Origin: Chlamydiota bacterium | GTDB taxonomy: Bacteria > Auribacterota > JACPWU01 | Direction of reading: 5' to 3' | Length of the DNA: 32,000 nucleotides | Assembly: GCA_016196885.1 (NCBI GenBank) | Contig: JACPWU010000004.1 | Span: 1-32,000 of the forward strand | Shown: positions 1 to 19,327 of the stretch, piece by piece | Numbering within the stretch: the stretch's first letter is position 1 | Layout: each line of letters begins with the position of its first letter | Program-made: the position numbers and the translations under genes | Notes under the pieces: generated by a model | Told to the model about the DNA's origin: nothing | What the model saw: only the letters and a program-made list of their open reading frames with translations | Databases searched by the model: none

Positions 1-117
1 CATTAGGATGGAACCCTTATGTCATATTCTGAACCGAAACAAATCTTGAAGAGCCCCGTGCGGGAAATCTGCATGCGGGGATCCGTGAGGGTTCTACCTT
101 CTGATCCCTACAAGGAC
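1..117 (+). ncRNA. Candidate 3' terminus of a group II intron (domain V 51-83, domain VI about 84-117). The 5' part lies outside the window.
   Basis: 51-83 (gagccccgtgcgggaaatctgcatgcggggatc) folds as a 9-bp lower helix starting with an AGC triad, a 2-nt bulge (AU) on the 3' strand, a 4-bp upper helix and a GAAAU loop. A following hairpin leaves A110 unpaired about 7 nt before an AC at 116-117. Confidence 0.4.
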
Positions 118-135
118 AGGAGGTAGTTCTACTCG

Positions 136-1287
136 ATGAAAAATATTCGAAGGGCTTTTTGGATTTCCAAGATTGAGGAGCTTTGGGAAAAACGCTCTAT
201 TGTGTGGCTTTCGGGCGTGAGAAGAGCGGGTAAGACCACATTGGCTCACAGCTTAGAAAAAATCGAATATTTCGATTGCGAATTGCCTCGTGTGCGTCAA
301 ATGATGGAAGATCCAGAAGATTTTCTTGAATCGTTTCACGGGCAAAGAATCATTCTTGATGAAGTTCATCGTTTAGATCATCCGGCCGAAATTCTTAAAA
401 TTGCTGCCGATCATTATCCCAAGCTTAAAATTTTGGCGACGGGTTCTTCAACGCTAGGGGCTTCAAAAAAATTTAGAGATACTTTGACGGGTCGAAAGGC
501 CGAACTTTGGCTGACGCCCATGATTTCATCTGACCTCAAGAGTTTCGCGAGGGAAGATTTGGGGTATCGATTTTTGCATGGAGGTTTACCTCCTTTTTTT
601 TTGTCAGATGAAGTCCCTGAAAGGGATTTTCAGGAGTGGATGGATGCCTATTGGGCCAAGGACATTCAGGAGCTCTTCCGTTTGGAGAGACGCCACTCCT
701 TTCAAAAATTTTCAGAGCTTTTGATGGTTCAAAGCGGTGGCATTTTTGAGGCAACAAATTTTGCACGTCCTTGTGAAGTCAGCAGGTCTACCATCTCTAA
801 TTATCTTCAAGTGCTTGAAGAAACTTTTGTGATGCATGTGGTCAGGCCTTTTAATTCTCATCGTGCTGCCGAAATTGTCGCTGCGCCCAAGGTGTACGCG
901 TTTGATACAGGCTTTGTGTCTTATTATCGAGGTTGGTCTTCACTGCGCCGACAGGATTTTGGAATTCTCTGGGAACATTTTGTTTTGAATGAGCTTTATG
1001 CCCATTTGCAAAGACGGGATCTTCACTATTGGAGAGACAAGCGAGGTCATGAGGTAGATTTTGTTTTTCTGAAAAGGGGAAAAAATTCTATGGTTCCTAT
1101 CACCCTTGAATGTAAATGGGCTTCTTCGGAATTTGATCCGACTTCTTTAAAGGCCTTTCGTCATCCCTATCCCCGCGGAGAAAATTTTGTGGTGTCGCAT
1201 GGTATTAAGAGATCGTATGAACGTCATTACGATGAAATCAAGGTTGTTTTTGTTTCTTTGGAGGAGCTTATTCAAAGATTGCAATGA
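136..1287 (+). CDS. AAA+ ATPase with a DUF4143-type C-terminal domain
   Basis: 383-aa ORF with Walker A GVRRAGKTT and Walker B-like IILDEVH. The C-terminal half has the typical DUF4143 layout. SD aggagg lies at 118-123. Confidence 0.8.
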   Translation: MKNIRRAFWISKIEELWEKRSIVWLSGVRRAGKTTLAHSLEKIEYFDCELPRVRQMMEDPEDFLESFHGQRIILDEVHRLDHPAEILKIAADHYPKLKILATGSSTLGASKKFRDTLTGRKAELWLTPMISSDLKSFAREDLGYRFLHGGLPPFFLSDEVPERDFQEWMDAYWAKDIQELFRLERRHSFQKFSELLMVQSGGIFEATNFARPCEVSRSTISNYLQVLEETFVMHVVRPFNSHRAAEIVAAPKVYAFDTGFVSYYRGWSSLRRQDFGILWEHFVLNELYAHLQRRDLHYWRDKRGHEVDFVFLKRGKNSMVPITLECKWASSEFDPTSLKAFRHPYPRGENFVVSHGIKRSYERHYDEIKVVFVSLEELIQRLQ

Positions 1288-6822: not shown

Positions 6823-8637
6823 ATGAACTCTTATCGTCCTGAAGAAAAACTTCTGATTGCTTGTACGCGCTTAGCCCGCATTTCTCATCACATTTCTGCT
6901 GCAAGCGCCGATTCCGCCTCGTCTCTCCGTGCAGACTTGGTCGGCCACGCTCAACATACTGTAAAGTATGCCTCGCATGGCCTCGGTCGTCTTCCTCGCA
7001 TCCAAGGCGGACTCAGGCGTTCCTCGCCGACGAAATTTGATGAGAAATGCGGGCTAGGCATCTTCCCGGGTCGGACCCAAGAGATCCAGACATTGCTTCA
7101 TGGTCAAATAAATTGGAATTATTTTCTCCAAATCATATTTCGACATCGACTTTCGAGCCTTGTTTATAGCGTTCTTAAAAAGTTTTTCGTTCAGGATGTG
7201 CCCGCGCCCTTTCTTGCGGAACTCTACGAGTCTTTTCAAATAGAATCCCGCAATACCCTTTTGAAGGTTCGAGAGCTCATCCCTCTCTTAAATTTATTTG
7301 AGGGACGAGGGATCCCGGCCATTCCTTACAAAGGGCCTATTTTGGCCATGGCACTTTATGGGGATATTTCACTGCGTGAATATCTGGATTTGGATATTTT
7401 AATTCGTCGAGAGGATGTCATGAAGGCCAGAGGCATTTTGACGTCTCAAGGTTACGAGCCCCGTTTTTCTCTCTCGGTCTGGCAACAGGCGTTCTTGCTT
7501 GAATATGATTGTGAGCAGTCTTTTTCAAAAGAAGGCGTTCGTGTGGATCTTCATTGGGGAACAGATCTTAAGCACCTTTCCTTCTCTCGTTTTAGCGACC
7601 AGAACTTGTGGGAGAATCTGGATGAGATAAATTTTGGAGGAAGAACCCTTCGTACTTTTTCGCCCGAAAATTTGCTTCTCATCCTTTGTTTTCATGGAGC
7701 CAAGCATGGATGGAGTTGCTTGAATTGGATTTGCGACATGGCGTGCCTCATTTGTAAACATTCTCAGATAGATTGGCAAGGGGCGTTCAGGAAGGCCAGA
7801 GAGTTGAACGGGGAGAGAATGCTTTTACTCGGGCTTTGCCTGGCTCGAGATCTCTATACAGTGGAATTACCAGATGAATTGATTCAGAGAATCGATCAAG
7901 ATCTACAGGTGTTGTCCCTGGCCAGAAGAATCAAGAAAAGGCTTTTCCAAAAACGCGATGCCTGGACAAGATTTTGGAATGATGTGATTTATCTCCGGGC
8001 CATGGAGGGACTGGGCAATCGGTTTCATCATGGTTTGAGGTATGTGATGCCCACCCCCGCCGAATGGCTCGCCATCCCACTTCCACAAATTCTTTATCCG
8101 CTTTATTATTTCTTGAGGCCCATGCGCCTTCTGGTAAAATATGTTTGTCGTTTGTTTCGAAAATCTCCAAAGTTAGATTTGTCCCTGTTTGTGCCAGCAC
8201 CTCTTTGGGTGGTGGAGAAGATGTTGGAGCTTGCCCAGGTGAAGAGCGATGATGTTGTCTATGATTTGGGCTGCGGGGATGGCCGGATGGTTGTTATGGC
8301 GGCTCAACGGTGGGGGGCTCGGGGGATAGGTGTAGATGTTGATCCTCAGCGTATCAGAGAAGCAAAGGATTACGCCCAGCGAGAAGGGGTAGAACATCTT
8401 GTCAAATTTTTGAGGCAAGATGCAAAGAAAACGCAAGTGTCTACTGCCACTCTTTTGATGCTGAACTTGCCCTCCACCGCTTATCCTAAGCTTAAGCCAT
8501 TGTTGGAACGGCTTAGATCGGGGACCCGGATTGTGACGCGCATCTTTTATCTGGATCATTTGACTCCTCTCAAACAAGAGGTATTTAAAGATGATGAAAA
8601 ATTCACCCACGTCCTTTATCTTTATGAAGTACCTTAG
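6823..8637 (+). CDS. Nucleotidyltransferase (PF14907-like) fused to a class I SAM-dependent methyltransferase; carries an in-frame 185-bp repeat element
   Basis: 604 aa. The N-terminus EEKLLIACTR...INWNYFLQIIFRHRL and YLDLDILIRRED are typical of lasso-associated nucleotidyltransferases. The C-terminus has VVYDLGCGDGRM and GIGVDVD methyltransferase motifs. Confidence 0.75.
   Translation: MNSYRPEEKLLIACTRLARISHHISAASADSASSLRADLVGHAQHTVKYASHGLGRLPRIQGGLRRSSPTKFDEKCGLGIFPGRTQEIQTLLHGQINWNYFLQIIFRHRLSSLVYSVLKKFFVQDVPAPFLAELYESFQIESRNTLLKVRELIPLLNLFEGRGIPAIPYKGPILAMALYGDISLREYLDLDILIRREDVMKARGILTSQGYEPRFSLSVWQQAFLLEYDCEQSFSKEGVRVDLHWGTDLKHLSFSRFSDQNLWENLDEINFGGRTLRTFSPENLLLILCFHGAKHGWSCLNWICDMACLICKHSQIDWQGAFRKARELNGERMLLLGLCLARDLYTVELPDELIQRIDQDLQVLSLARRIKKRLFQKRDAWTRFWNDVIYLRAMEGLGNRFHHGLRYVMPTPAEWLAIPLPQILYPLYYFLRPMRLLVKYVCRLFRKSPKLDLSLFVPAPLWVVEKMLELAQVKSDDVVYDLGCGDGRMVVMAAQRWGARGIGVDVDPQRIREAKDYAQREGVEHLVKFLRQDAKKTQVSTATLLMLNLPSTAYPKLKPLLERLRSGTRIVTRIFYLDHLTPLKQEVFKDDEKFTHVLYLYEVP
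6872..7056 (+). mobile_element. MITE-like (miniature inverted-repeat transposable element) 185-bp element, copy 1
   Basis: Perfect 19-bp TIRs tagcccgcatttctcatca / tgatgagaaatgcgggcta, with a central hairpin catact-gtaa-agtatg. A near-identical second copy lies at 14485-14669. TA occurs at both ends. Confidence 0.7.
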
Positions 8638-8694
8638 AAAAGGTGTAACGCAATAAAAACCTATCAAGCCTTCGGATTAAAATTTAGCACTGAT

Positions 8695-9510
8695 TTGGAA
8701 ATTCCAGAATTTTCCCTGGCCTCATTTCTTCCGGAATCAGCGGATGCAGAGATCTTCTGTGGCAAGGTCCCTGATTTGAAGCCTCATTCTAAACAACTCG
8801 TTCTCGATATTAAGGAGGTCGCTCGTTTTTTAATCACGGAGGGCAGAAAAATTATTTATGAGCCTTGTAGAAATTCTGATCAAGACACCCTTCGTTTGTT
8901 TTTACTCGGCTCTTGCATGGGGGCTCTCATGCAGCAGCGAGGTCATGTCGTGCTTCATGGGAATGCGATTTCTAGGGATGGGAAAACGTGTCAAGTGTTT
9001 GTGGGAGATCGAGGGGCAGGGAAATCAACCCTGGCGGCTTGGTACTACCAACAAGGTGCTTATGTCCTGGCCGATGACGTGTGTGCGATTGGTTTTGATC
9101 GAAATGGAAAGCCTTATGTGATTCCAAGTTTTCCACAGATAAAGTTATGGCAGAAAGGGGCAGAGCTTCTTGAAATCAACACTTCTTATCTTCGTCGCGT
9201 ACGCCCTGGGGATGATAAATTCGGACTTCCCATTCACTCTCAATATTGTGACCATCCCTTGCCCTTGACAGAAGTGATAGAAATTAAGAGCCGATCCTTC
9301 ACGCGTATCCCCCTCACTGGCACAGAAAAAATTAAAATATTGATCCAGCATAGCTATCGCTACCATTTTCTGCGTGCGATGGTATTGGAATACACTTATT
9401 CAAGAAGTTTAGCTCGTTTAGCACAGCAAGTGGATTTTGCAAAAATGGGCAGGGTCAACTTGGATTTTCTTAGCATTCCGGCGAAGAGGCCTTACGATGC
9501 AAAGTCTTAA
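8695..9510 (+). CDS. HPr-kinase-like serine kinase (lasso peptide kinase candidate)
   Basis: 271 aa from the first canonical start (TTG) with P-loop GDRGAGKST. Kinase-like N-terminal sequence continues upstream to 8653, so the start is uncertain. Confidence 0.75.
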   Translation: MEIPEFSLASFLPESADAEIFCGKVPDLKPHSKQLVLDIKEVARFLITEGRKIIYEPCRNSDQDTLRLFLLGSCMGALMQQRGHVVLHGNAISRDGKTCQVFVGDRGAGKSTLAAWYYQQGAYVLADDVCAIGFDRNGKPYVIPSFPQIKLWQKGAELLEINTSYLRRVRPGDDKFGLPIHSQYCDHPLPLTEVIEIKSRSFTRIPLTGTEKIKILIQHSYRYHFLRAMVLEYTYSRSLARLAQQVDFAKMGRVNLDFLSIPAKRPYDAKS

Positions 9511-10108
9511 TTTTTTTAGACACTGCGGTCTCTTTATTCAGGAGAATTTTTTGGATGTGCAAACCTGTGCTAAAATACAAGATGAAATGAGATCTGCTGT
9601 TGGGAAAGACGGACAGATCTACTCTCAAAGAGAACAAACTTTTGTCGTGGATCATGAGATCAGAAAAGTGAAATCATTTCAGGTTTCACAAGCGACAGAA
9701 GGGTATGTCAAAGATCGCCTTCTTAAAATTCGGCCAACCCTGGAGAATTATTTTCAGGTTCAACTGACGGGGCATCGCAGACCTGTATTTCTTTTTTACG
9801 AGAAGGGGGACTTTTATAGAGCGCATTCTGATGTGGGTGGTTTGGATTCAAAGGTTCCGCATATGGCCTCTCGCAAAATCTCCATAGTGATATTTCTGAA
9901 TGCCGAGTCGTCTCTCCCAAGTTCTGAAACCTATTGCGGGGGTGCATTGACCTTTTTTGGAATTCTGAATAATTCCAAGTGGAAGCCGTATGGATTTCCA
10001 CTCAAAGGAGAGAAAGGATTGTTGGTTGCTTTTAGGTCAGAGGAAATACACGAGGTTTTGCCTGTCACGTCAGGAGTGCGCTCGACCCTTGCGGTGTGGT
10101 TTAATTGA
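9497..10108 (+). CDS. 2OG-Fe(II) oxygenase, prolyl-4-hydroxylase-like
   Basis: ATG at 9497 with SD aagagg at 9484-9489. Shows HxD (AHSDV), a distal His (EIHEV) and Arg (RSTLAVW). Overlaps the kinase 3' end by 14 nt. Confidence 0.8.
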   Translation: MQSLNFFRHCGLFIQENFLDVQTCAKIQDEMRSAVGKDGQIYSQREQTFVVDHEIRKVKSFQVSQATEGYVKDRLLKIRPTLENYFQVQLTGHRRPVFLFYEKGDFYRAHSDVGGLDSKVPHMASRKISIVIFLNAESSLPSSETYCGGALTFFGILNNSKWKPYGFPLKGEKGLLVAFRSEEIHEVLPVTSGVRSTLAVWFN

Positions 10109-10124
10109 GAATTGGTTTTTACCA

Positions 10125-10310
10125 TCAAGAATTTGCATCGTTTGGGTAAACACCCCCGTCCACTGGGAGGCTCATCGTTCCACTCCCTGTGGAGTGGAGT
10201 TCAATTTTTTCAAGCGTAGGGGGCACCCATGGCTTTTTTTGAAGCACAGTCCCGATAGAGGTGTCTTTTCCTCCGTCCAGTTTCTGAGAGGGGAGGTGAG
10301 AGCTTTTCAT
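10125..10310 (-). CDS. Lasso peptide precursor candidate (61 aa)
   Basis: Internal ATG of the 81-aa track ORF with an aaggaa SD-like motif upstream. The leader ends KKPWVPPTLEKIELHSTG, and the proposed core is SGTMSLPVDGGVYPNDANS. Lies 19 nt downstream of B2. Confidence 0.65.
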   Translation of the reverse strand: MKSSHLPSQKLDGGKDTSIGTVLQKKPWVPPTLEKIELHSTGSGTMSLPVDGGVYPNDANS

Positions 10311-10329
10311 AGCATAGGTTCCTTTTCTT

Positions 10330-10794
10330 TTAAATTTTATTTTGATGGGAATACATTCCCACAATGACATAATTCAAATGCGGCTGAGCACCTACAACGG
10401 GAATGTTCTTATAGCATACCCAGGCATGGGCATCGTATTTTTTATGTGAGGAATCTGATTTTTTTAAACCAAGATACACAGTGCCAGATAACCTTCTTCG
10501 AGCCAGCATCCATTGGGCTGCCATGGCTTGATCCAGACATTTGCTATGCCAAGGCAGGTTACAACGCACGATATCAATACCCTTCTGAATAAGGCGAAAT
10601 GTATTCGGATCGGAGGTTGTGTCTTCTTTACGCAAGGGAGGATCTATCCTCTTAGAGCCAAGATATTTTAAAAGGATTCGGGAAGGAACAAATTGTATCA
10701 AGAGCTTGGCCAAAAAGAGATGGAAAAACGCTTCTCGACACAAGGAGCGTAACTCTGGGGACAACCGTCGATAAGTTTTAAATTTAGCTCGCAT
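10330..10794 (-). CDS. Lasso peptide leader peptidase B2 (transglutaminase-like Cys protease)
   Basis: 154 aa with SKCLDQAMAAQWMLARRR and YDAHAWV motifs (Cys/His of the catalytic triad). Overlaps the B1 gene by 11 nt. Confidence 0.85.
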   Translation of the reverse strand: MRAKFKTYRRLSPELRSLCREAFFHLFLAKLLIQFVPSRILLKYLGSKRIDPPLRKEDTTSDPNTFRLIQKGIDIVRCNLPWHSKCLDQAMAAQWMLARRRLSGTVYLGLKKSDSSHKKYDAHAWVCYKNIPVVGAQPHLNYVIVGMYSHQNKI

Positions 10795-11083
10795 GACGGG
10801 TGACCTTTAACAGATGATGTGCATTTAACATATTTAAAAAGGTTCCTGTCTCCTGCTTACACTGCTCAGGACCTATTGTATAGCACTGCGTCAATTGGCT
10901 GAGGAGATCTTGAAGGGATATGGGCTTTTCCAAAAGCTCCCAGATCTTCGTTCCTACAGGGTTCAAACCAAAATAACAACCTGAGGCTTCATCCAACATC
11001 ACGGTCTCATCATCAATTTTGGTCGTGAATAGATCGTCCCTGTGAACCAGTCTATCGCTCAGATCAAAGAGAGTGTTTCCCAT
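10784..11083 (-). CDS. PqqD-family RiPP recognition element (lasso B1)
   Basis: About 99 aa from ATG 11083 (SD aagagg), with a GTG alternative at 11107. Contains the YFGLNPVGTKIWELL PqqD-like core. Confidence 0.8.
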   Translation of the reverse strand: MGNTLFDLSDRLVHRDDLFTTKIDDETVMLDEASGCYFGLNPVGTKIWELLEKPISLQDLLSQLTQCYTIGPEQCKQETGTFLNMLNAHHLLKVTRHAS

Positions 11084-11272
11084 GATGGATTCGCCTCTTT
11101 CCTGCACTGTTTGGAATCAATGGATCAATAGGGTTGGTCACCTTTCACTTGATTCAGACCTCATTATGCCTCAACATGGGACTGTCGTCAATATTCATTT
11201 AGCATCCGCATGGGGGACTGGACAATGATGATGAAGGCCCGGTATATTTTGGTTCAATAAGAGAGGTCCAGG

Positions 11273-12607
11273 GTGAAGGTTCTTGAATTTCATGGCATAG
11301 ATCATTTAGAAACAGATTCCATCAGCAAGGCGAATCTTTTTCCGATCATTTCTCAACTAGATATTCTGAGACAAAAGGGGCATCGTTTAATCCACAAGGC
11401 GGGTTTCATCCTGGGTCAAGATTTTGTCTGTGTCAAGAGGGGATCTAAACTTGAGATAAAAAATATTTCAGGGTTGAAAGTCTGTCGTAAAGCCCATTTG
11501 CTAGAAGCCTTTCGCGCCTTCATAAAGGCCGATCGAGTGGAGCCTGGTTTTCAGGCAACCCCTGACGAGTTTCTTCTATATCTGGCTCAAAAATCCTGGC
11601 CTTTAAGGGCCTCTTTATCTCTTGTACAGGATGAGCTTTGTGGACTGTGGAAGATTGCGCTTTTGGAACGGAGCCGCATTCGAGACGCTTGTGAATATCA
11701 ATACACTTTACCGGAGTGGTTGAGGGATATGGTGATTCTTTTGCCGCCAGAACAGTTTGAAGGGAGATGGGATTCCCATCATCCGAATGTCCTTCGCAGT
11801 CGTTCTTCTATCCAGATAGGACGTTTAGGGATTCAAAAACAAAAGGTGATGGTGATGGAAACATGGATGGATTTAATTCACACCGTTGGAATTTCATCTT
11901 CCGTTTTATCTTTTCAAAATCAGGGGGATGCCCCTCCCCTTTTTCATTATCAAGGCCAGGAGGTCATGCGTCAGGCCATCTCACAATCCTTGGGTTCACC
12001 GTTAGCGGTACGTCGTTCAACAGCATCTCTCAATGTTGGTTATTGGCAAGCTCGAGAAGAGAAACCTCGTTCTTATTTTGACCCTGAGCTTAGAGAACAT
12101 TTGCGCAAAGAAGTGGATTCTCTCCTTCCGACTCAAGGCACTCTTCTTGATATAGCAAGTGGTTCTGCTCCAGTATGCTCAAGGGAAAATCGTGTAGTGA
12201 AAGGCGTTGGATTGGTTGAAAAATCTATGCGTGCCAATAAAATTTTATCTGAGTTCAAAGTTCATGACTTTAATCAAGATCCGAATATTCCTTATCGTGA
12301 AAGATTTGATGCGGCAGTGATCTCTTTTGCTGTGATGTACTTTACCTATCCTATTGAACTCTTGTGTTCTATTCGTCAGCATCTTAAAGGAGGTGGGAGG
12401 TTGGTGATGATTTTCTCAGAACTTTTTTTCGATGCCTCCGTGTCCGTTAATGCTTGGAATTTCCCTAGGGTTTACGGTTTTAGAAATCGCTGCGAGGTCA
12501 TCTTAAATTACTTCGAAAGGGCAGGAGGATTTGGGAAGGTTCATCAAAGGACGGTGAACGATCACTTTTTTATATTTTTTGCAGATGCTCAACCAGAAAT
12601 GATATAA
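11273..12607 (+). CDS. Protein with a C-terminal SAM-methyltransferase-like domain and an unassigned roughly 280-aa N-terminal region
   Basis: 444 aa with a GTG start after gagagg. Shows motif I-like LLDIASGSAP plus FDAAVISFAVMYF and GGRLVMIF. The N-terminal part matches nothing I recognise. Confidence 0.6.
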   Translation: MKVLEFHGIDHLETDSISKANLFPIISQLDILRQKGHRLIHKAGFILGQDFVCVKRGSKLEIKNISGLKVCRKAHLLEAFRAFIKADRVEPGFQATPDEFLLYLAQKSWPLRASLSLVQDELCGLWKIALLERSRIRDACEYQYTLPEWLRDMVILLPPEQFEGRWDSHHPNVLRSRSSIQIGRLGIQKQKVMVMETWMDLIHTVGISSSVLSFQNQGDAPPLFHYQGQEVMRQAISQSLGSPLAVRRSTASLNVGYWQAREEKPRSYFDPELREHLRKEVDSLLPTQGTLLDIASGSAPVCSRENRVVKGVGLVEKSMRANKILSEFKVHDFNQDPNIPYRERFDAAVISFAVMYFTYPIELLCSIRQHLKGGGRLVMIFSELFFDASVSVNAWNFPRVYGFRNRCEVILNYFERAGGFGKVHQRTVNDHFFIFFADAQPEMI

Positions 12608-14415
12608 CTGAGATAACCACACAGCCCTAGACAACGCATGTAATTCAAGCGATATTCTACAGCAATATCGTGGTTCTGTTTTTCAATAAAGGGTAAGGCC
12701 TTCCACCGACTCAGGATTTTAGAATAATCATAAAAATCCCAAACCACGGGTAAATCCTTCCATTGTTCAAGTTGCATCAGACGTTTTGAATGATGGGTGT
12801 TGTATTGTAAATACCAGTCTGCTGATTGCTCGCCCCGATAGGGATTGTGGCGGATGGCTTGAGGCACAATATCATCCAATCCTTCACGAACGAGTAATCG
12901 GCGCTCTAATTTGCCATAGCCTTTCCAATAAACCCATTTGGGAATGTTATAACAGAATTTTACAATTTCTAAATCACGCGTTGGGTCTAGCTCATGAATG
13001 CCATACCACAATGCCATCGGGGTCATGTAGCTTAACCGTGGCGTGCTTCCACGTCCTAAAAGCATCCATACATGTTCATTGAATCCAGCAGCGATTTCTT
13101 GACGCATGATCTGACGCGCCATCTTTGATTTTTTAAAAACAGGATGACATTGTTTTAAATAATCACCATATGCCGTGTAGGGCCTCAGCCAATTCTTCAA
13201 GGTCGAAAGGTTAGAACGAATGTTTCGCAAACCCTCGAAACCTCCCTTCCAAGATAGACTTGCATTTCCACCTCCCGCAGATAATAAGATGCGCCCTTCG
13301 TGGGTGAGGGTCTCATCGTATGAAGCCAGAATCCAATCAAAATGGGTCACGTTACGAACGGGCTGGTCAATGTAAGGATAGAATGTTTTTAAGAGTTCAA
13401 AAATATCTGTTTCCGGAGATGCTTGATAAGCCTTGTGTTGAATATTAGGATAAGCCTTAAGTACTTCCTTAACCAAATGCATTTCGTGATAATACCAGCC
13501 GGGATGGAAACTCGGGCCCTCCAGTCCGAGTGGAATTTCTGTAAAACCATGAAGGACTTGATTGCGTTGGGCAAGAATTTTAGCGGCCATCGATGCTACT
13601 GAACTGGAGTCGAGGCCTCCACTGATATGGGCATGAACAGGAAATGAAGTTCTTAAACAGTTGCTCACGGCCTCTTCAAACAATGAGGAAAAATCCCTGT
13701 AATAATCTTCTCTTCTCTGATGGCGAATTCTGGATCGATTGCGGGTCAATTCCCAGTAGGAGCCTAAATGTATTTGATGGTTCTTTAAGTAGAGGTCACT
13801 TGCAGGAGGAAGTTTCTCGACCTCTCGATAGCTGGTTTGAGTCAGAGGAGCCGAATCCAAAGCGAAATGTGCGAATAGATTTTCATTGATGGAGCAAGAA
13901 TCACATAAGATTCGAAAGGGACTGAAGTAATTGGCAAAGATCAAATAATGGTTTTTCTGATAAGCATAGAAACAAGGTTGATTCCCCAGCGGATCGGTCG
14001 CGATCCATAAAGATTGATGAGAGGGATCCCATATGGAAAATGAAAAATGACCTTGTAAATGATGAACGCAATCTTTATCCCATTTCTCGTAGGCAGCTAG
14101 AACGAAGGCGCAGTCAGACATGGTTTTTGATTCCGCTAAGGAAAGGCCCAGGGCTTCAAGAAGGGTATTGCGATTTGTTAAGTAGATATGGCCAACGATG
14201 AGGCAACTTGATTGACGAGACCTGTAAGGCATTAACCCTTGTGAGCATTCAGGGGTGACAAAACGTTGCGTACAAACCAGGCCCACATTTTTTTCTATGA
14301 AAACGGCTTTGTGATCTGGCTTCCATTTTGGGCTTCTAAAGGCAGTTTGAATCAGCTTGTCACGATCGATAGGCTTTTCATCTAATCGAATCATTCCACA
14401 AAATGCATTTATCAT
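12589..14415 (-). CDS. Lasso peptide cyclase C (asparagine synthetase B-like)
   Basis: 608 aa with a GATase-like N-terminal domain and PP-loop SGGLDSSSVA. Confidence 0.85.
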   Translation of the reverse strand: MINAFCGMIRLDEKPIDRDKLIQTAFRSPKWKPDHKAVFIEKNVGLVCTQRFVTPECSQGLMPYRSRQSSCLIVGHIYLTNRNTLLEALGLSLAESKTMSDCAFVLAAYEKWDKDCVHHLQGHFSFSIWDPSHQSLWIATDPLGNQPCFYAYQKNHYLIFANYFSPFRILCDSCSINENLFAHFALDSAPLTQTSYREVEKLPPASDLYLKNHQIHLGSYWELTRNRSRIRHQRREDYYRDFSSLFEEAVSNCLRTSFPVHAHISGGLDSSSVASMAAKILAQRNQVLHGFTEIPLGLEGPSFHPGWYYHEMHLVKEVLKAYPNIQHKAYQASPETDIFELLKTFYPYIDQPVRNVTHFDWILASYDETLTHEGRILLSAGGGNASLSWKGGFEGLRNIRSNLSTLKNWLRPYTAYGDYLKQCHPVFKKSKMARQIMRQEIAAGFNEHVWMLLGRGSTPRLSYMTPMALWYGIHELDPTRDLEIVKFCYNIPKWVYWKGYGKLERRLLVREGLDDIVPQAIRHNPYRGEQSADWYLQYNTHHSKRLMQLEQWKDLPVVWDFYDYSKILSRWKALPFIEKQNHDIAVEYRLNYMRCLGLCGYLSYIISG

Positions 14416-14484: not shown

Positions 14485-14669
14485 TAGAGCGCATTTCTCA
14501 TCACATTTCTGCTGCTCTTCTCCGATTCCGCCTCGTCTCTCCGTGCAGACTCGGTCGGCCACGCTCAACATACTGTAAAGTATGCCTCGCATGGCACGGA
14601 GCGTCTTCCTCGCATCCAAAGCGGACTCAGGCGTTCCTCGCGACGAAATCTGATGAGAAATGCGAGCTA
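14485..14669 (+). mobile_element. MITE-like 185-bp element, copy 2
   Basis: Same length and orientation as 6872-7056, differing only in three short patches and a few point changes. TIRs tagagcgcatttctcatca / tgatgagaaatgcgagcta. Confidence 0.7.
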
Positions 14670-14696: not shown

Positions 14697-14750
14697 CTCC
14701 CCCAACCCCTCCTCAACGAATAGCCCCTTTGGGGTACAAAGGAGGGGAGA
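14697..14750. repeat. C-tract/G-tract nested hairpin element
   Basis: cccctcct (14706-14713) pairs with aggagggg (14740-14747). An inner hairpin cccc-ttt-gggg lies at 14724-14734. Confidence 0.55.
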
Positions 14751-14804: not shown

Positions 14805-15197
14805 TTAAAGCTTTGTTCCAGAAAAAGACTTGGTGACCGTAACCCCATCCAAAGTGGTTTTCTGGGTTCCGGCAAAGGTCTGCCCACTCGCATCAAAGGT
14901 GAAACTCATGGAAAGGCTGAATGTTTCTCCCTCTACCGTGACGGTTTGAGCCGGGACTGTCACAGTGCTTCCTGAAACGGTTCCCGTCGTTGTAAGGGCA
15001 AGAGTTTTATCGGTGATCACCATTTGACTTCCGCTCTGACTTAAGCTCCAGAGATGGGTTTCTGAAACGCCTGCCTCTGTAAAAGTCACGTTATAATTGC
15101 CTGAAAAGTCTGCTGCGGGGCCTTCTGTATCATTGTCGCAACCCGTGATAAGGAGAGCAAAAAGGGTCATGGCTGCCCCTATTTTTGTGATTCGCAT
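14805..15197 (-). CDS. Small Thr/Ser-rich lipoprotein, function unknown
   Basis: Lipobox LLITGC follows a hydrophobic signal. ATG at 15197 has an upstream aaagga SD; the track ORF extends to a TTG at 15206. Confidence 0.6.
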   Translation of the reverse strand: MRITKIGAAMTLFALLITGCDNDTEGPAADFSGNYNVTFTEAGVSETHLWSLSQSGSQMVITDKTLALTTTGTVSGSTVTVPAQTVTVEGETFSLSMSFTFDASGQTFAGTQKTTLDGVTVTKSFSGTKL

Positions 15198-15443
15198 GTT
15201 GCTCAAATCCTTTCCCTCTTTCCCTTTTAATTTGGGAGAGCTACTCTATAATGAACAAGGAAAGAGGGTCAAGTTCATTGTGTTTCTTTGTCCGCGATCA
15301 ATTTGCGAATGATTTCTGATGCCTTTAAATGTCCTTTCTGGTTCCAGTGCCCGTCATTTTTGAAATGATACTGCAATTGTAAAGGTCAGAGTAGGCGGCG
15401 AGCCCTTTTCTGGCGGGCTAAAAGTTTACGAATATGAATCCCT

Positions 15444-17261
15444 TCAAATGCGAGGCGTTCCTTCTAATGCTTCTTTACGCGATTGCAGTTGATAAAGCTT
15501 AGCATAAATTCCTTTTTTGGAAAGCAGTGTGGAGTGTGTTCCCATTTCGACAAGTTCTCCATGATGAAGAACCAGGATGCGACTCACGCTTTTTAAGGTA
15601 GCCAGGCGATGAGCGATAATGAACACCGTGCGGTTTTGAAAAGCCTCTTTCGAAATCCGTTCAATCCATTTTTCTGTCAAGGAATCCATGTGAGCGGTGG
15701 CTTCATCCAAAATGAGAATGGAGGGATTTTGAACGAGCGTTCGAATGAAGGCAATCATTTGACGCTCACCACTGGACAGATTCGCCCCCTTTTCAAAGAT
15801 TTCCTTTTTCAAGAAAAGGGGGCCTGACTCAAAGGGAGCCCTTGCAAAATCGGGCAGGGCCTGAAAGATTTCTCGTCCTTTTTCATCCCAAAGAAAAATA
15901 TTTTCTTCCACAGTACCTGAGAAAAGAAAAGGTTCTTGCTGAATGTAACCAATCTTTTGTCGGAGCATGCGTTTATCGGAAGTTTCAGAAATGTTTTTTC
16001 CATCGATGAGAATTTCTCCTTGCTCCAGGTCATAAAATTGCATGAGAAGATGAACAAGGGTCGTTTTCCCTGCACCTGTGTACCCAACGATTCCGATTTT
16101 CTCTCCCGCCTCGATGCAAAAATTCAGATTCACCAAGACCCAAAGAGACTCTTTTTCTTGTGAATAACGAAAAGAGACATTTTGAAATTCAATGGATCCT
16201 TGTAGGGAAAGTTTTTCTATTTGAGTTTCTTGCGGACGAATTTGTTTTTCGAGCGGCCGATCCAGAAATTCAAAGATACGTTCGCAGGAGGTCATGGCCG
16301 TGAGAAAGAGATTGTATTTTTCCGTGATGTCTCGAATCGGTGAATAAAGAGAATGGAGGTAAGCCATGAATGAGACCAGCATTCCGAGTGAAATGGAATT
16401 TTTTAAAGAGAGGAAACCTCCGTACCAAATTAAAAGCAACATGGAAAGACTGCTTAAGAAAGTAATGGTGGGCTGAAAATAGGCGAAGGATTCAAGGGTC
16501 TTGATTTGGGTTCGTGTGTAATCTTTAGAAGTGCGGTCGAAAAGATCATGAAATGTTTTTTGACGGTTGAAAATTTGAATGAGACTCATGCCTGAAATAT
16601 TTTCGGCGAGCGTTGCATTCAGTTGAGAAAGGGCCTGTCGGGAATCTCGAGCCGTTTCTCGAATCCTTCGGCCAAAAAATCTTGAGAAAAAGGCCATGAT
16701 GGGAAAAACACTTACGCAAATGAGGCCCAGGGAGGGATGAAGAACCATGAGCCAAACGATGATTCCCGCAACCACACAAATATTTCCAAGCGTGACCGCC
16801 AGGCCGCTCGTGAAGAGGTCTTGGAGGCTTGAAGTGTCATTCACCAAGCGGGTGACCAGTCTCCCAATGGGATTTTGGTTAAATTCATGAAGCGGATAGA
16901 ATTGATATTGTTTCAAGAGATCCTGTCTTAGGTCATGAATCACCTCTTGACCCAATTTCGTGAAGCTCAAGTTTTGAAAATAGGTGGCGAGGGCATTGAG
17001 GGCATCAAGGGTCAAAAGGATGAATCCAAAAGGTAAGAGGAGCGCCGCTTTTTTGGGAAGGAGGGCAAGGTCCACAGCTTTTCCCAAAAGCCAGGGAATG
17101 GAAAGAGAGGCCCCCGTGGTAAAAAAAACCAATGAGAGGCTGACGATAAAAAGTTTTCGATATTTTGTGATATAAGGCCAAAGCCTTTTTGTGAAAAGTT
17201 CGAAGACTTTAAGACGGAGCCTATTTTCTGGACCAGAGTCGTCAGGATCTTGCCAGTTCAT
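15444..17261 (-). CDS. ABC exporter, fused permease/ATPase (type I exporter half-transporter)
   Basis: 605 aa with a 6-TM N-terminal half, Walker A GYTGAGKTT, signature LSSGERQ and Walker B ILILDEA. Confidence 0.9.
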   Translation of the reverse strand: MNWQDPDDSGPENRLRLKVFELFTKRLWPYITKYRKLFIVSLSLVFFTTGASLSIPWLLGKAVDLALLPKKAALLLPFGFILLTLDALNALATYFQNLSFTKLGQEVIHDLRQDLLKQYQFYPLHEFNQNPIGRLVTRLVNDTSSLQDLFTSGLAVTLGNICVVAGIIVWLMVLHPSLGLICVSVFPIMAFFSRFFGRRIRETARDSRQALSQLNATLAENISGMSLIQIFNRQKTFHDLFDRTSKDYTRTQIKTLESFAYFQPTITFLSSLSMLLLIWYGGFLSLKNSISLGMLVSFMAYLHSLYSPIRDITEKYNLFLTAMTSCERIFEFLDRPLEKQIRPQETQIEKLSLQGSIEFQNVSFRYSQEKESLWVLVNLNFCIEAGEKIGIVGYTGAGKTTLVHLLMQFYDLEQGEILIDGKNISETSDKRMLRQKIGYIQQEPFLFSGTVEENIFLWDEKGREIFQALPDFARAPFESGPLFLKKEIFEKGANLSSGERQMIAFIRTLVQNPSILILDEATAHMDSLTEKWIERISKEAFQNRTVFIIAHRLATLKSVSRILVLHHGELVEMGTHSTLLSKKGIYAKLYQLQSRKEALEGTPRI

Positions 17262-19026
17262 CTTCTATCCTTTGCAGTTCAAGAAGTTCTCGATAAAGTC
17301 CGGGCGTCTTCGCCAAATTTAGAGGCATGCCTGTTTGAATCAGCACCCCTTCTTTAAACACCAAAATTTGGTCGAAGTCCCAGAGTTTTGAAAGGCGATG
17401 GGTGATAAGAATTAAGGTTTGGTTTCGAGATAATTTTTCATGAGAGAGGTGGTGTAAGATTTCTGATTCTGTATGAGAGTCTACACTGGAGAGCGCGTCA
17501 TCTAAAATCAAAAGAGGGGCATCTACGGCCAGGGCCCGGGCCAAGGTCACCCGGGCTCTTTCACCTCCCGAAAGCGTAAGCCCTCGTTCACCCATTTTGA
17601 GGTCCAAATTCCATCGTCCCGCTTCTTTGTCCAACCCGGAACGTTTCAAAAGTTCAAAAAGCCAAACATCCCCTTTCATTTCAGGAAAGGGCCCCCCCAT
17701 TAAAATATTCCATCTCAAGGTTTCTCTGAATAGAAAAACATCTTGGGGGACAAAAGCAATTTTCTTTCTTCGTTCTTCCAGAGGAAGTTTCGAAAAATCG
17801 CTGCCTTCCCAGAAAATCATGTGGGGAGGTGTTTCATGAAGGCCCGCCAAAAGGCGAATCAACGTACTTTTGCCGGACCCGATGGTTCCAACGATGGCGG
17901 TGCGACTTCCTTTCTGAATTTGAAAGTTGATGTTTTGAAGTACAGGGCGGGATGAACCAAGATAGGTGAAAGTCAAATGACGTACTTCTAAAAAGGGAGC
18001 ATTTATCTGAGAAGGGATTGAGAATGCGTTACCCTCAGAAGTCTTATTTTCTTCTTTCTCTTGCAACACTTGGCAAATTCTCTCCAAAGAAGTTTTTCCG
18101 CGTTGATAATAGGTGACACTGAGTCCAAAGGCAGTCATGGGCCAGACGAGTTGATCGAGATAACGGGTGAAGGCCGCAAAAGTTCCGAGGCTGATGGAGC
18201 CCATGATCACGTCTTTACCGGCAAAAATCAAAAGAGAGACCAGGCCCAGTGAAACGGCCAATGTGAAAAGAGGGTCGAAAGCGGCCTGGGCGCGGGCGAG
18301 CTTTAAATTGAGACGGACGAATTCTTTTCCGATTTTTGAGAAGCGATTCAATTGTGTCCATTCTCGTGTGAAGGCCTTGATGATGCGAATCCCTTCTAAA
18401 TTTTCTTGAGAGAAGGCACAGAGTTTCGAAAATTGATTTTGAACTTTTTCAAAACGTTCGTGAATCAACTTTTCGATCCGGGTGATGATGAAAGGAACCA
18501 TGAGCATGGGGGCTAGGGAGAGGAAGGCCAATTTATAGGATAAGATAAACAGGGTGGGTGGAATGCTCATGAGAAAGAAGGTGGCATCCGCCAAGACCAG
18601 CAATCCTGGGCCCAAGGCAAAGCGGACCGCTTCGGTGTCATTGGTGGCCAAAGACATCAAATCTCCGATCGTGTTCCGATTGTAAAAAGAGGGGGGTAGC
18701 TTTTGAAGTTTAGAAAAATAATCGTCCCGGATTTTTTCCGCTACTTTAAAAGAGCCTCTCATCAGAAACATACGCCAAAAATATCGGCAAATGCTTTGGC
18801 CGATAGCGATGGTGATATAGGCCACCCCGAGCCAAAGGAAGGGAGAGAAATGTTTCTCTCCTTTTAAGGCAAGTGAGGCCCGATCAATAAATTCTTTTAA
18901 TACAAGAGGAGGGAGGATTTGTAGAAAATCCACAATAAAGAGGGTGAGAATGCCAAAGGCAAATTCTCGCTTATAGGGTTTAGCATAGTGATAAAGAGTT
19001 TTAAGTGTTTGTGAAAAAGTTATCAT
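17242..19026 (-). CDS. ABC exporter, fused permease/ATPase; probable heterodimer partner
   Basis: Start taken at ATG 19026 (MITFSQTLKTLYHYAKPYK). Walker A GTIGSGKST, signature LSGGERAR and Walker B LLILDDA. 20-nt overlap with the downstream ABC gene. Confidence 0.85.
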   Translation of the reverse strand: MITFSQTLKTLYHYAKPYKREFAFGILTLFIVDFLQILPPLVLKEFIDRASLALKGEKHFSPFLWLGVAYITIAIGQSICRYFWRMFLMRGSFKVAEKIRDDYFSKLQKLPPSFYNRNTIGDLMSLATNDTEAVRFALGPGLLVLADATFFLMSIPPTLFILSYKLAFLSLAPMLMVPFIITRIEKLIHERFEKVQNQFSKLCAFSQENLEGIRIIKAFTREWTQLNRFSKIGKEFVRLNLKLARAQAAFDPLFTLAVSLGLVSLLIFAGKDVIMGSISLGTFAAFTRYLDQLVWPMTAFGLSVTYYQRGKTSLERICQVLQEKEENKTSEGNAFSIPSQINAPFLEVRHLTFTYLGSSRPVLQNINFQIQKGSRTAIVGTIGSGKSTLIRLLAGLHETPPHMIFWEGSDFSKLPLEERRKKIAFVPQDVFLFRETLRWNILMGGPFPEMKGDVWLFELLKRSGLDKEAGRWNLDLKMGERGLTLSGGERARVTLARALAVDAPLLILDDALSSVDSHTESEILHHLSHEKLSRNQTLILITHRLSKLWDFDQILVFKEGVLIQTGMPLNLAKTPGLYRELLELQRIEDELARS

Positions 19027-19142
19027 GATTTCTAACTCCCCCAACCAGACTGTCCGAAAATTTCCCTCCCCCTTGCGACCGAGCCGGGTGCCGCAAAGCG
19101 GCCGGCGAGGAAGTGGTCGGAGCCCGTCAGGGCGCAAACCAT

Positions 19143-19327
19143 GGGGAGGGTTAGGGAGGGGGTGGATTTCTAAAATCAAATATCAAAAATCAAAAATCAA
19201 AATGACAATGTAAAATTTAAAATGTTTCTGGATTCTAAGCATATATAAAATTTTGCATTTTGGTATTTACATTTTGATTTTTGATATATTTTCCACCCTC
19301 CCCTAACCCCTCCCATCTAGGGAGGGG
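19143..19327. repeat. Large imperfect palindrome with G4-type G-tracts and AT-rich heptamer arrays
   Basis: The left arm is ggggagggttagggaggggg followed by (AAAATCA-type) x4. The right arm is TTTTGAT x2 followed by ccaccctcccctaacccctccc. The terminal hairpin is cccctccc-atcta-gggagggg. Confidence 0.75.

Follow-up and report, generated by a model that had tools for sequence, protein, structure and literature searches.

In this study, we have analyzed a 32,000-nt stretch of DNA (the window: contig JACPWU010000004.1, positions 1 to 32,000, forward strand), and we conclude that its region 6823-14415 is a predicted lasso peptide locus of the HPr-kinase/PF14907-nucleotidyltransferase subclass in a bacterium labeled Chlamydiae. 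The core machinery, comprising the precursor (A), the leader recognition protein (B1), the leader peptidase (B2), and the cyclase (C), looks intact on sequence grounds. The tailoring arm, by contrast, is probably compromised or at least altered, because a miniature inverted-repeat transposable element (MITE) has inserted 61 codons into the gene for a nucleotidyltransferase-methyltransferase fusion (N-MT) and because ATA replaces the ancestral ATG of the gene for an HPr-kinase-like kinase (K). What is new here is the addition of an Fe(II)/2-oxoglutarate (2OG) oxygenase to a known kinase/N-MT type of lasso locus; no new class is involved. Judged by gene content, only the oxygenase and a gene encoding a 444-aa protein appear to be true extras of the locus, and the N-MT fusion is not among them. 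Database proteins identical to those encoded here carry the locus tags HYS08_065xx, lie on a contig of 38 kb, and come from a metagenome-assembled genome (MAG) labeled "Chlamydiae bacterium."

Protein families were assigned by Pfam and NCBIfam profile searches, with gathering (GA) or curated cutoffs. The profiles for the cyclase, B1, B2, and PF14907 confirm the initial annotation of the window, which had proposed a lasso cluster of the kinase/nucleotidyltransferase type; each open reading frame (ORF) that it listed lies where it had been placed, and the families that it had named (Asn_synthase, PqqD, Transglut_core3, NTP_transf_5, and 2OG-FeII_Oxy_3) were matched. The cyclase, described there as Asn-synthetase-like with a PP-loop, scored 52.7 bits against Asn_synthase (GA, 21) and 66 bits against GATase_7, and the sequence SGGLDSS is present in its translation. 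It also matched the lasso model NF033535 with an E value of 3e-69, at 234 bits, a score under the model's strict 525-bit cutoff. Its identity to the cyclase of another locus from a MAG labeled Chlamydiae (L001) is 57%, and that to the cyclase of locus L012 is 44%. The PqqD-like nature claimed for B1 is borne out by PF05402 (1.7e-16, 60.7 bits; GA, 23.4) and by lasso_PqqD_Bac (2.7e-18). B2, claimed as a transglutaminase-like protease, matched Transglut_core3 (3.6e-15) and scored 69 bits against the lasso B2 model NF033537 (cutoff, 33); its catalytic Cys (in KCLD) and His (in AHAWV) are invariant in our alignment. A, B1, B2, C, and the oxygenase are all full length and keep their catalytic residues, and an ORF survey across the cluster revealed neither a frameshift nor an internal stop.

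The 61-aa ORF that had been put forward as a precursor candidate has a WxxPxL leader motif, Thr at position -2, Ser1 and Asp9, and Ser at its C terminus; it is preceded by a plausible ribosome-binding site. The core start SGTMSLPVD follows HSTG, so that the junction would lie at ...HSTG/SGTMSLPVDGGVYPNDANS and the predicted core would be a 19-aa peptide with a Ser1-Asp9 ring, ending in ...NDANS. An alignment of this precursor with seven small ORFs of related clusters showed no variation at the Pro and Leu positions of the W/YxxPxL motif, and the C-terminal Ser was found in six of the eight sequences (the relatives' ends including ...DES, ...YSS, ...SAS, ...VFS, and ...RQS). The spacing from the motif to Thr equals that of the L012 precursor, whose core is a textbook Gly1-Asp8 type. 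A Ser1-Asp9 core is favored over a Gly1-Asp8 core on the basis of these sequences, because of the Thr at position -2 and the spacing shared with the L012 precursor.

The first of the two lesions in the tailoring arm lies in the N-MT gene. Both domains of the fusion that had been annotated were confirmed: NTP_transf_5 covers aa 96 to 345 (2.5e-59, 201 bits; GA, 31.2), and the methyltransferase part matched Methyltransf_25/31/11 at aa 470 to 545 and an aKMT-like NCBIfam model (5e-30), with the motif DLGCGDG intact. The fusion is not unusual, however, since the same architecture occurs in more than 100 proteins of 540 to 630 aa, and the MITE had gone unmentioned. Alignment with six homologues of 551 to 577 aa showed that N-MT has a private insert of 61 aa, placed directly behind the N-terminal motif EExLLxxC, whose residues E7, L10, L11, and C14 are invariant in all seven sequences and are split off from the rest of the protein by the MITE.

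The inserted element has the features of a MITE: it is short, has terminal inverted repeats and TA flanks, and is dispersed in several copies. Two copies lie in the window in direct orientation with 94% identity, copy A in the N-MT gene and copy B upstream of the cyclase gene; both have TA on either side and terminal inverted repeats of approximately 37 nt, and the terminal sequences are GCATTTCTCATCA...TGATGAGAAATGC. The net insertion of copy A is 183 nt, or 61 codons, and the single stop-free frame among its six is the one read by the N-MT gene. The element folds far better than its shuffled versions (z = -4.7). A solitary, intergenic copy with 92% identity is found at positions 1951-2132 of L008, a locus from another Chlamydiae MAG. 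Relatives with approximately 70% identity and the same termini number approximately 30 in the Acidobacteriota MAG CBDEGM01, with a few more in MAGs that are uncultured or belong to Bryobacterales (loci L014-L045 overall); a partner transposase of the element was not identified. The idea that the two copies bracket the cluster as a composite mobile unit was rejected because copy A, lying inside N-MT, leaves 16 codons outside and because the L008 copy is solitary and intergenic.

The second lesion concerns the start of the kinase gene, and here the family assignment itself needs justification. As a single sequence, the kinase had no Pfam match, its match to TIGR04352 was subthreshold (4.8e-5, 22.6 bits), and its only match among PDB sequences was a P-loop match to dephospho-CoA kinase (E = 0.06). 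A profile built from 36 sequences of the kinase family, however, placed HPr kinase/phosphorylase structures at the top of the PDB matches (4.7e-5), with the signature HG...GxSGxGKS...ADD. The kinase has 511 homologues, many of which have PF07475. The AlphaFold2 (AF2) model of the protein from TTG 8695 is confident (predicted local distance difference test [pLDDT] score, 92.5) and matches phosphoenolpyruvate (PEP) carboxykinases, of the PEPCK/HprK-type fold; the catalytic domain of HprK belongs to the PEP carboxykinase fold superfamily. In L008, L010, and L012, orthologues with 52 to 59% identity have B1, B2, and/or C as direct neighbors. From the PF07475 homologues, the profile matches to the PDB, the AF2 fold, and the lasso-linked orthologues, we assign the putative kinase to the HPr-kinase family. 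The initial annotation was thus upheld as to family, by profile and fold, although the support is weaker than it implied and the homology upstream of its start, 8695, had been missed. That homology covers 14 further codons ahead of the annotated TTG, where the window reads IKTYQAFGLKFSTDLEIPEF and the closest orthologue reads MKTYRAFGLNFISDLEIPEF, and the ATA at 8653 occupies the position of the orthologues' ATG start. No ATG, GTG, or TTG is present between this ATA and the preceding stop; the kinase frame opens directly after the N-MT stop codon (TAG, 8635-8637), in the same frame. The rest of the frame is intact, with the P-loop and all the family-invariant residues.

Table 1. Positions and supporting evidence for the predicted genes and repeats of the lasso locus and its surroundings
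Feature	Position	Strand	Evidence or remarks
N-MT, PF14907 nucleotidyltransferase plus class I S-adenosylmethionine (SAM) methyltransferase, 604 aa	6823-8637	+	MITE copy A in frame after codon 16
MITE copy A	6872-7056	.	185 nt including TA on both sides; in N-MT gene
K, HPr-kinase-like lasso precursor kinase	8653-9510	+	Annotated from TTG 8695 (271 aa); homology from ATA 8653
Fe(II)/2OG oxygenase, P4H/PKHD type, 203 aa from ATG 9497	9497-10108 (ORF from 9437)	+	PF13640
Precursor A, 61 aa	10125-10310	-	WVPPTL leader motif, Thr(-2), C-terminal Ser
B2 leader peptidase, transglutaminase-like Cys protease	10330-10794	-	Transglut_core3 and NF033537
B1, PqqD-like leader recognition	10784-11107	-	PF05402 and lasso_PqqD_Bac
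444-aa protein, C-terminal divergent class I methyltransferase fold	11273-12607	+	HMMER, AF2, and Foldseek; pathway role conjectural
C, Asn-synthetase-like lasso cyclase, 608 aa	12589-14415	-	GATase_7/6, Asn_synthase, and NF033535
MITE copy B	14485-14669	.	70 nt upstream of cyclase start codon
Tandem ATP-binding cassette (ABC) half-transporters, SmdB-like and SmdA-like	15444-19026	-	ABC_membrane and ABC_tran

The oxygenase, claimed as a prolyl 4-hydroxylase (P4H)-like enzyme, scored above the GA with 2OG-FeII_Oxy_3 (PF13640; 6.9e-12, 46.6 bits; GA, 27) and matched PRK05467 (4e-8). Its HxD motif (H-S-D), distal His, and Arg are intact and align to the PKHD hydroxylase 3dkq. A remnant of the same gene is preserved in L001, where its last 50 codons (62% identity) lie between an N-MT gene, whose product is 65% identical to that of the window, and a homologue of the precursor, 47 aa in length. 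Because both the remnant and the precursor homologue lie downstream of that N-MT gene, the arrangement of N-MT, oxygenase, and precursor is ancestral to the clade and older than the split between the two lineages.

The closest relatives of the cluster genes were found in L001 and L008, from two MAGs labeled Chlamydiae, and in L003/L010, from assembly GCA_964640155.1. L001 has lost the kinase gene and most of the oxygenase gene by deletion, neither B1 nor B2 is present within the approximately 21.7-kb locus examined, and the precursor would have a core starting with Asn. In L008, unrelated genes (AAA_14/DUF4143 and DUF6922) lie among K, B2, and B1, with no cyclase nearby. Since nothing but a remnant of the oxygenase is left in L001, next to its precursor homologue, the lasso clusters of these chlamydial genomes are in flux. 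The N-MT gene adjoins C in L001 and L003 and adjoins C-A-K in two acidobacterial loci (L049 and L050); C-A-K-(N-MT) is thus a recurrent lasso module in Acidobacteria. The acidobacterial modules resemble the locus studied here in having an N-MT fusion (33 to 42% identity), a Y/WxxPxL precursor, and a homologous kinase of approximately 320 aa, and their order is C, a small precursor ORF, the kinase, and then the fusion. They differ in lacking the Fe/2OG oxygenase and the 444-aa gene and in their gene order.

Two of the loci collected in this comparison have features of their own. L010/L003 (contig CAZXEQ010000003.1, approximately 160 to 185 kb) is a large double lasso locus with two cyclases, two 51-aa precursors, and three HprK-like genes, the product of one having a degenerate P-loop (GVGSST); it also encodes two sulfotransferases, an Asp/Arg hydroxylase (PF05118), a free PF14907 protein, and an N-MT fusion. 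L012 has, at 11000-11397 (minus strand), two tandem precursors of 35 aa with identical leaders, one core beginning with the canonical Gly1 (GKTNNWPD...) and the other with Leu at the same position (LKTSSSSD...).

If the locus follows the logic of its subclass, PqqD-like B1 would bind the 61-aa precursor through the WxxPxL leader motif, and K would phosphorylate the C-terminal Ser while the precursor is still linear. The oxygenase would hydroxylate a core residue, also on the linear precursor, with Pro7, Pro14, or an Asp or Asn residue as candidates. B2 would then cut after Thr-Gly, and the cyclase would link the amine of Ser1 to the side chain of Asp9, yielding a 19-residue lasso. The PF14907 domain of N-MT may act on the phosphoserine in the manner of PsmN in pseudomycoidin, decorating it further, and the fused methyltransferase may add a methyl group. 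The initial annotation, which envisaged a "multiply decorated" C-terminal Ser, was overstated in this respect: with a MITE in N-MT and ATA in the kinase gene, such a product may not be made.

Several points weigh against the interpretation of this region as a lasso locus with an intact core and an altered tailoring arm. Every chemical step of the pathway is predicted from the logic of the subclass. The contig is MAG derived, and both the taxon label and single-base calls, such as that of the ATA, hinge on the quality of binning and assembly. In the precursor, the spacing from the leader motif to Thr is two residues under the canonical YxxPxL-x9-T, and cleavage one residue further on, giving a Gly1-Asp8 core, is a plausible if less favored alternative. 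C is set apart from B1-B2-A by an oppositely oriented gene. No intact copy of the oxygenase was found in the related lasso clusters examined, and the one relative found in the Joint Genome Institute (JGI) metagenomes is 31% identical and has a non-lasso neighborhood. Finally, the MITE insert may inactivate N-MT, and translation of the kinase may be poor or yield an N-terminally truncated protein.

The last two points bear on a rather unlikely alternative, namely, that the cluster is fully functional, with the MITE-derived residues forming a surface loop that the protein accepts, much as Rickettsia proteins accept Rickettsia palindromic elements, and with K made from ATA or from TTG 8695. Those elements, which Ogata and colleagues are reported to have described in 2000 as in-frame selfish repeats in protein genes, offer a parallel in that a short palindromic mobile repeat has entered, in frame, a protein gene of a bacterium whose lineage is intracellular; the element found here, however, belongs to another family, with TA-flanked inverted-repeat termini and relatives of approximately 70% identity that abound in MAGs of Acidobacteriota. 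The inserted length is divisible by three, and of the six frames the gene uses the one that lacks stops; because an open frame and the right orientation would coincide by chance in approximately 1 case in 6, this argues only weakly for selection. Similarly, the N-MT ORF is unbroken through both domains, with motif I and PF14907 conserved, but the insert splits off the invariant N-terminal motif. The K frame is otherwise intact, including its P-loop and invariant residues, and the AF2 model from TTG 8695 is confident; a TTG start would nevertheless drop 14 conserved residues, and the same genes have decayed outright in the sister locus L001. The product of a functional cluster would be a hydroxylated lasso with its C-terminal phosphoserine further decorated and methylated, an uncharacterized product class. 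The most specific form of this proposal, an active Chlamydiota locus making a Ser1-Asp9 lariat with a hydroxylated core and a C-terminal phosphoserine converted to a methylated phosphodiester or glycosyl adduct by an N-MT that works with its 61-residue insert, is to be regarded as unlikely.

The opposite alternative, a decaying, nonproducing remnant in which mobile elements and deletions erode the lasso clusters of this lineage and no mature peptide is made, strikes us as improbable. It would account for the MITE in N-MT and the second copy in the promoter region of C, for the change of the K start codon, and for the foreign, oppositely oriented gene between C and B1, and it is in keeping with the state of L001 (no B1 or B2, a stub of the oxygenase, and an Asn-starting core) and of L008 (AAA_14/DUF4143 and DUF6922 insertions and no cyclase nearby). 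Against it stand the full-length A, B1, B2, C, and oxygenase genes with intact catalytic residues and a cluster free of frameshifts and internal stops.

The gene that separates C from B1 encodes the 444-aa protein, lies antisense to both, and overlaps the 3' end of the cyclase gene by 19 nt. It had been annotated as a second methyltransferase-domain protein; HMMER, AF2, and Foldseek support a class I fold, but a pathway role is unsupported, and the relatives checked are in non-lasso contexts. The methyltransferase match was subthreshold in Pfam. In a word-index search of 5.8 billion proteins, no relative besides the protein itself was found, and an exhaustive HMMER search yielded 619 relatives, nearly all of which align within the C-terminal approximately 190 residues. 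In that exhaustive search, P0246 was the only partial relative of the N-terminal region. The relatives are free proteins of approximately 270 aa, modules of proteins of 2,800 to 6,900 aa, or part of one 801-aa protein that has some of the N-terminal region in common, and the two contexts checked (P0246 and P0242) were both non-lasso. In the AF2 model, pLDDT exceeds 90 over the C-terminal approximately 190 residues and is below 50 over the N-terminal approximately 240. Foldseek matched the C-terminal domain with a probability of 1.0 to Bud23, MM_2633, and many SAM-bound methyltransferases. Its motif I is degenerate, reading LLDIASGSA instead of xLDxGxGxG, with a family consensus of LDLMxGxxS. 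Between the gene and B1 lies a divergent intergenic region of 166 nt in which each strand has promoter-like hexamers; in our promoter and terminator scan, promoter-like sites were no more common than in shuffled sequences, and such sites have value as positional hints only. From this sequence evidence, the gene has most likely been inserted between C and B1 in this lineage specifically; it does not rank as an established tailoring gene, and a tailoring role is conjecture. That the protein is a dedicated lasso tailoring enzyme whose N-terminal domain is a new peptide-binding module is decidedly improbable: its location within the cluster, the intergenic region shared with B1, and the methyltransferase fold speak for it, but the gene occurs in none of the related lasso clusters examined, P0246 and P0242 lie in non-lasso contexts, further relatives form parts of giant multidomain proteins, motif I is degenerate, and the N-terminal 240 aa are modeled with low confidence.

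The locus can be placed among the characterized lasso systems with several reservations. Like the paeninodin type (Paenibacillus dendritiformis; PadeK, ThcoK, and SyanK), it has split B1 and B2 proteins, a cyclase resembling Asn synthetase, an HPr-kinase-like kinase, and a precursor whose last residue is Ser (PMC8498205, PMC9266682). Unlike that type, which has Firmicutes and Proteobacteria as hosts, it comes from a host labeled Chlamydiae, its kinase is distant (PF07475 and TIGR04352 being subthreshold) and has ATA at its start, and N-MT, the oxygenase, and the 444-aa gene are added. HPr-kinase homologues phosphorylate the C-terminal Ser on linear precursors (PMC9266682, PMC8498205, PMC11912497), whereas BsfK phosphorylates Ser3 instead (PMC10368454). 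The combination of a kinase with a PF14907-type protein and a C-terminal Ser target is shared with pseudomycoidin from Bacillus pseudomycoides, with its PsmK and PsmN (PMC9266682, PMC11912497); in the window, however, the nucleotidyltransferase has a SAM methyltransferase fused to it and contains the MITE insert. PsmN adds a hexose to the phosphate, but the unfused protein is, according to reviews and a 2025 paper, without demonstrated in vitro activity (PMC9266682, PMC8498205, PMC11912497), so that its chemistry cannot be transferred to N-MT with confidence. Canucin A from Streptomyces canus also has an Fe/2OG oxygenase in its cluster, CanE, which hydroxylates the linear lasso precursor with the aid of B1 (PMC9266682). 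The likeness drawn here is in enzyme class; the canucin system has no kinase and no nucleotidyltransferase, and the enzyme in the window is P4H/PKHD-like (PF13640).

In the literature searched, no product was found to have been characterized for such a gene set; to this extent the initial annotation holds, although the fusion that it singled out is not special to this locus. The same searches returned no paper combining "lasso peptide" with PF14907 and gave only incidental matches for lasso peptides with Chlamydiae or Chlamydiota, none being described from the phylum; the most relevant match was the report of lasso clusters in amoeba symbionts of other phyla.

Upstream of the cyclase gene, beyond MITE copy B and a lipoprotein gene, lie two ABC genes (ORFs as called, 15444-17261 and 17242-19179, both on the minus strand), each with ABC_membrane and ABC_tran. 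These had been taken as half-ABC exporters, and the genes are indeed present, but they are SmdA/SmdB-like and their link to the cluster is uncertain: they show 30 to 34% identity, over part of their length, to the single exporter embedded in related clusters. It is possible, but uncertain, that they are the exporters of the cluster. An inverted-repeat structure at 19141-19313, with GC-rich arms (GGGGAGGGTTAGGGAGGGGGTGG and CCACCCTCCCCTAACCCCTCCC) around an AT-rich core, lies upstream of an ATG at 19026 (MITFSQ...), in the long N-terminal extension of ORF 17242-19179; because the repeat sits within this extension, ATG 19026 is the more likely start. A similar motif, CCCCAACCCCTCC, is found at 14700-14712, just past MITE copy B. 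The lipoprotein gene (14805-15206, minus strand), between copy B and the ABC genes, is a 133-aa ORF with the lipoprotein signal LLITGC and no family match.

At the other end of the window, an Rfam search of its whole length gave no match inside the cluster; the sole match was the 3' end of a group II intron at 49-137 (plus strand; RF00029), whose 40 bits are exactly the gathering score and whose body appears to lie upstream of the window. Genes for AAA_14/DUF4143 ATPases are located near the chlamydial lasso loci (136-1287 on the plus strand of the window, 8118-9266 in L001, and 12165-13325 in L008); in L008, B2 and B1 are split by an inserted copy, a hint that the gene is mobile or invasive.

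In conclusion, this locus extends tailored lasso clusters to MAGs labeled Chlamydiae; relatives occur in at least two additional MAGs with that label, as well as in one other assembly. Its product, if made, would combine three types of modification not yet seen together, and if the locus is active, the peptide could act in the interaction of its Chlamydiota producer with a host or a competitor. As a lasso tailoring enzyme, the N-MT fusion is widespread, its homologues numbering in the hundreds, and a tractable cluster that contains it could reveal what the phosphoserine carries. Taken together, the MITE read in frame, the start codon lost from the kinase gene, and the decay of the sister locus provide a snapshot of how a cluster for a ribosomally synthesized and posttranslationally modified peptide (RiPP) may erode in these genomes.

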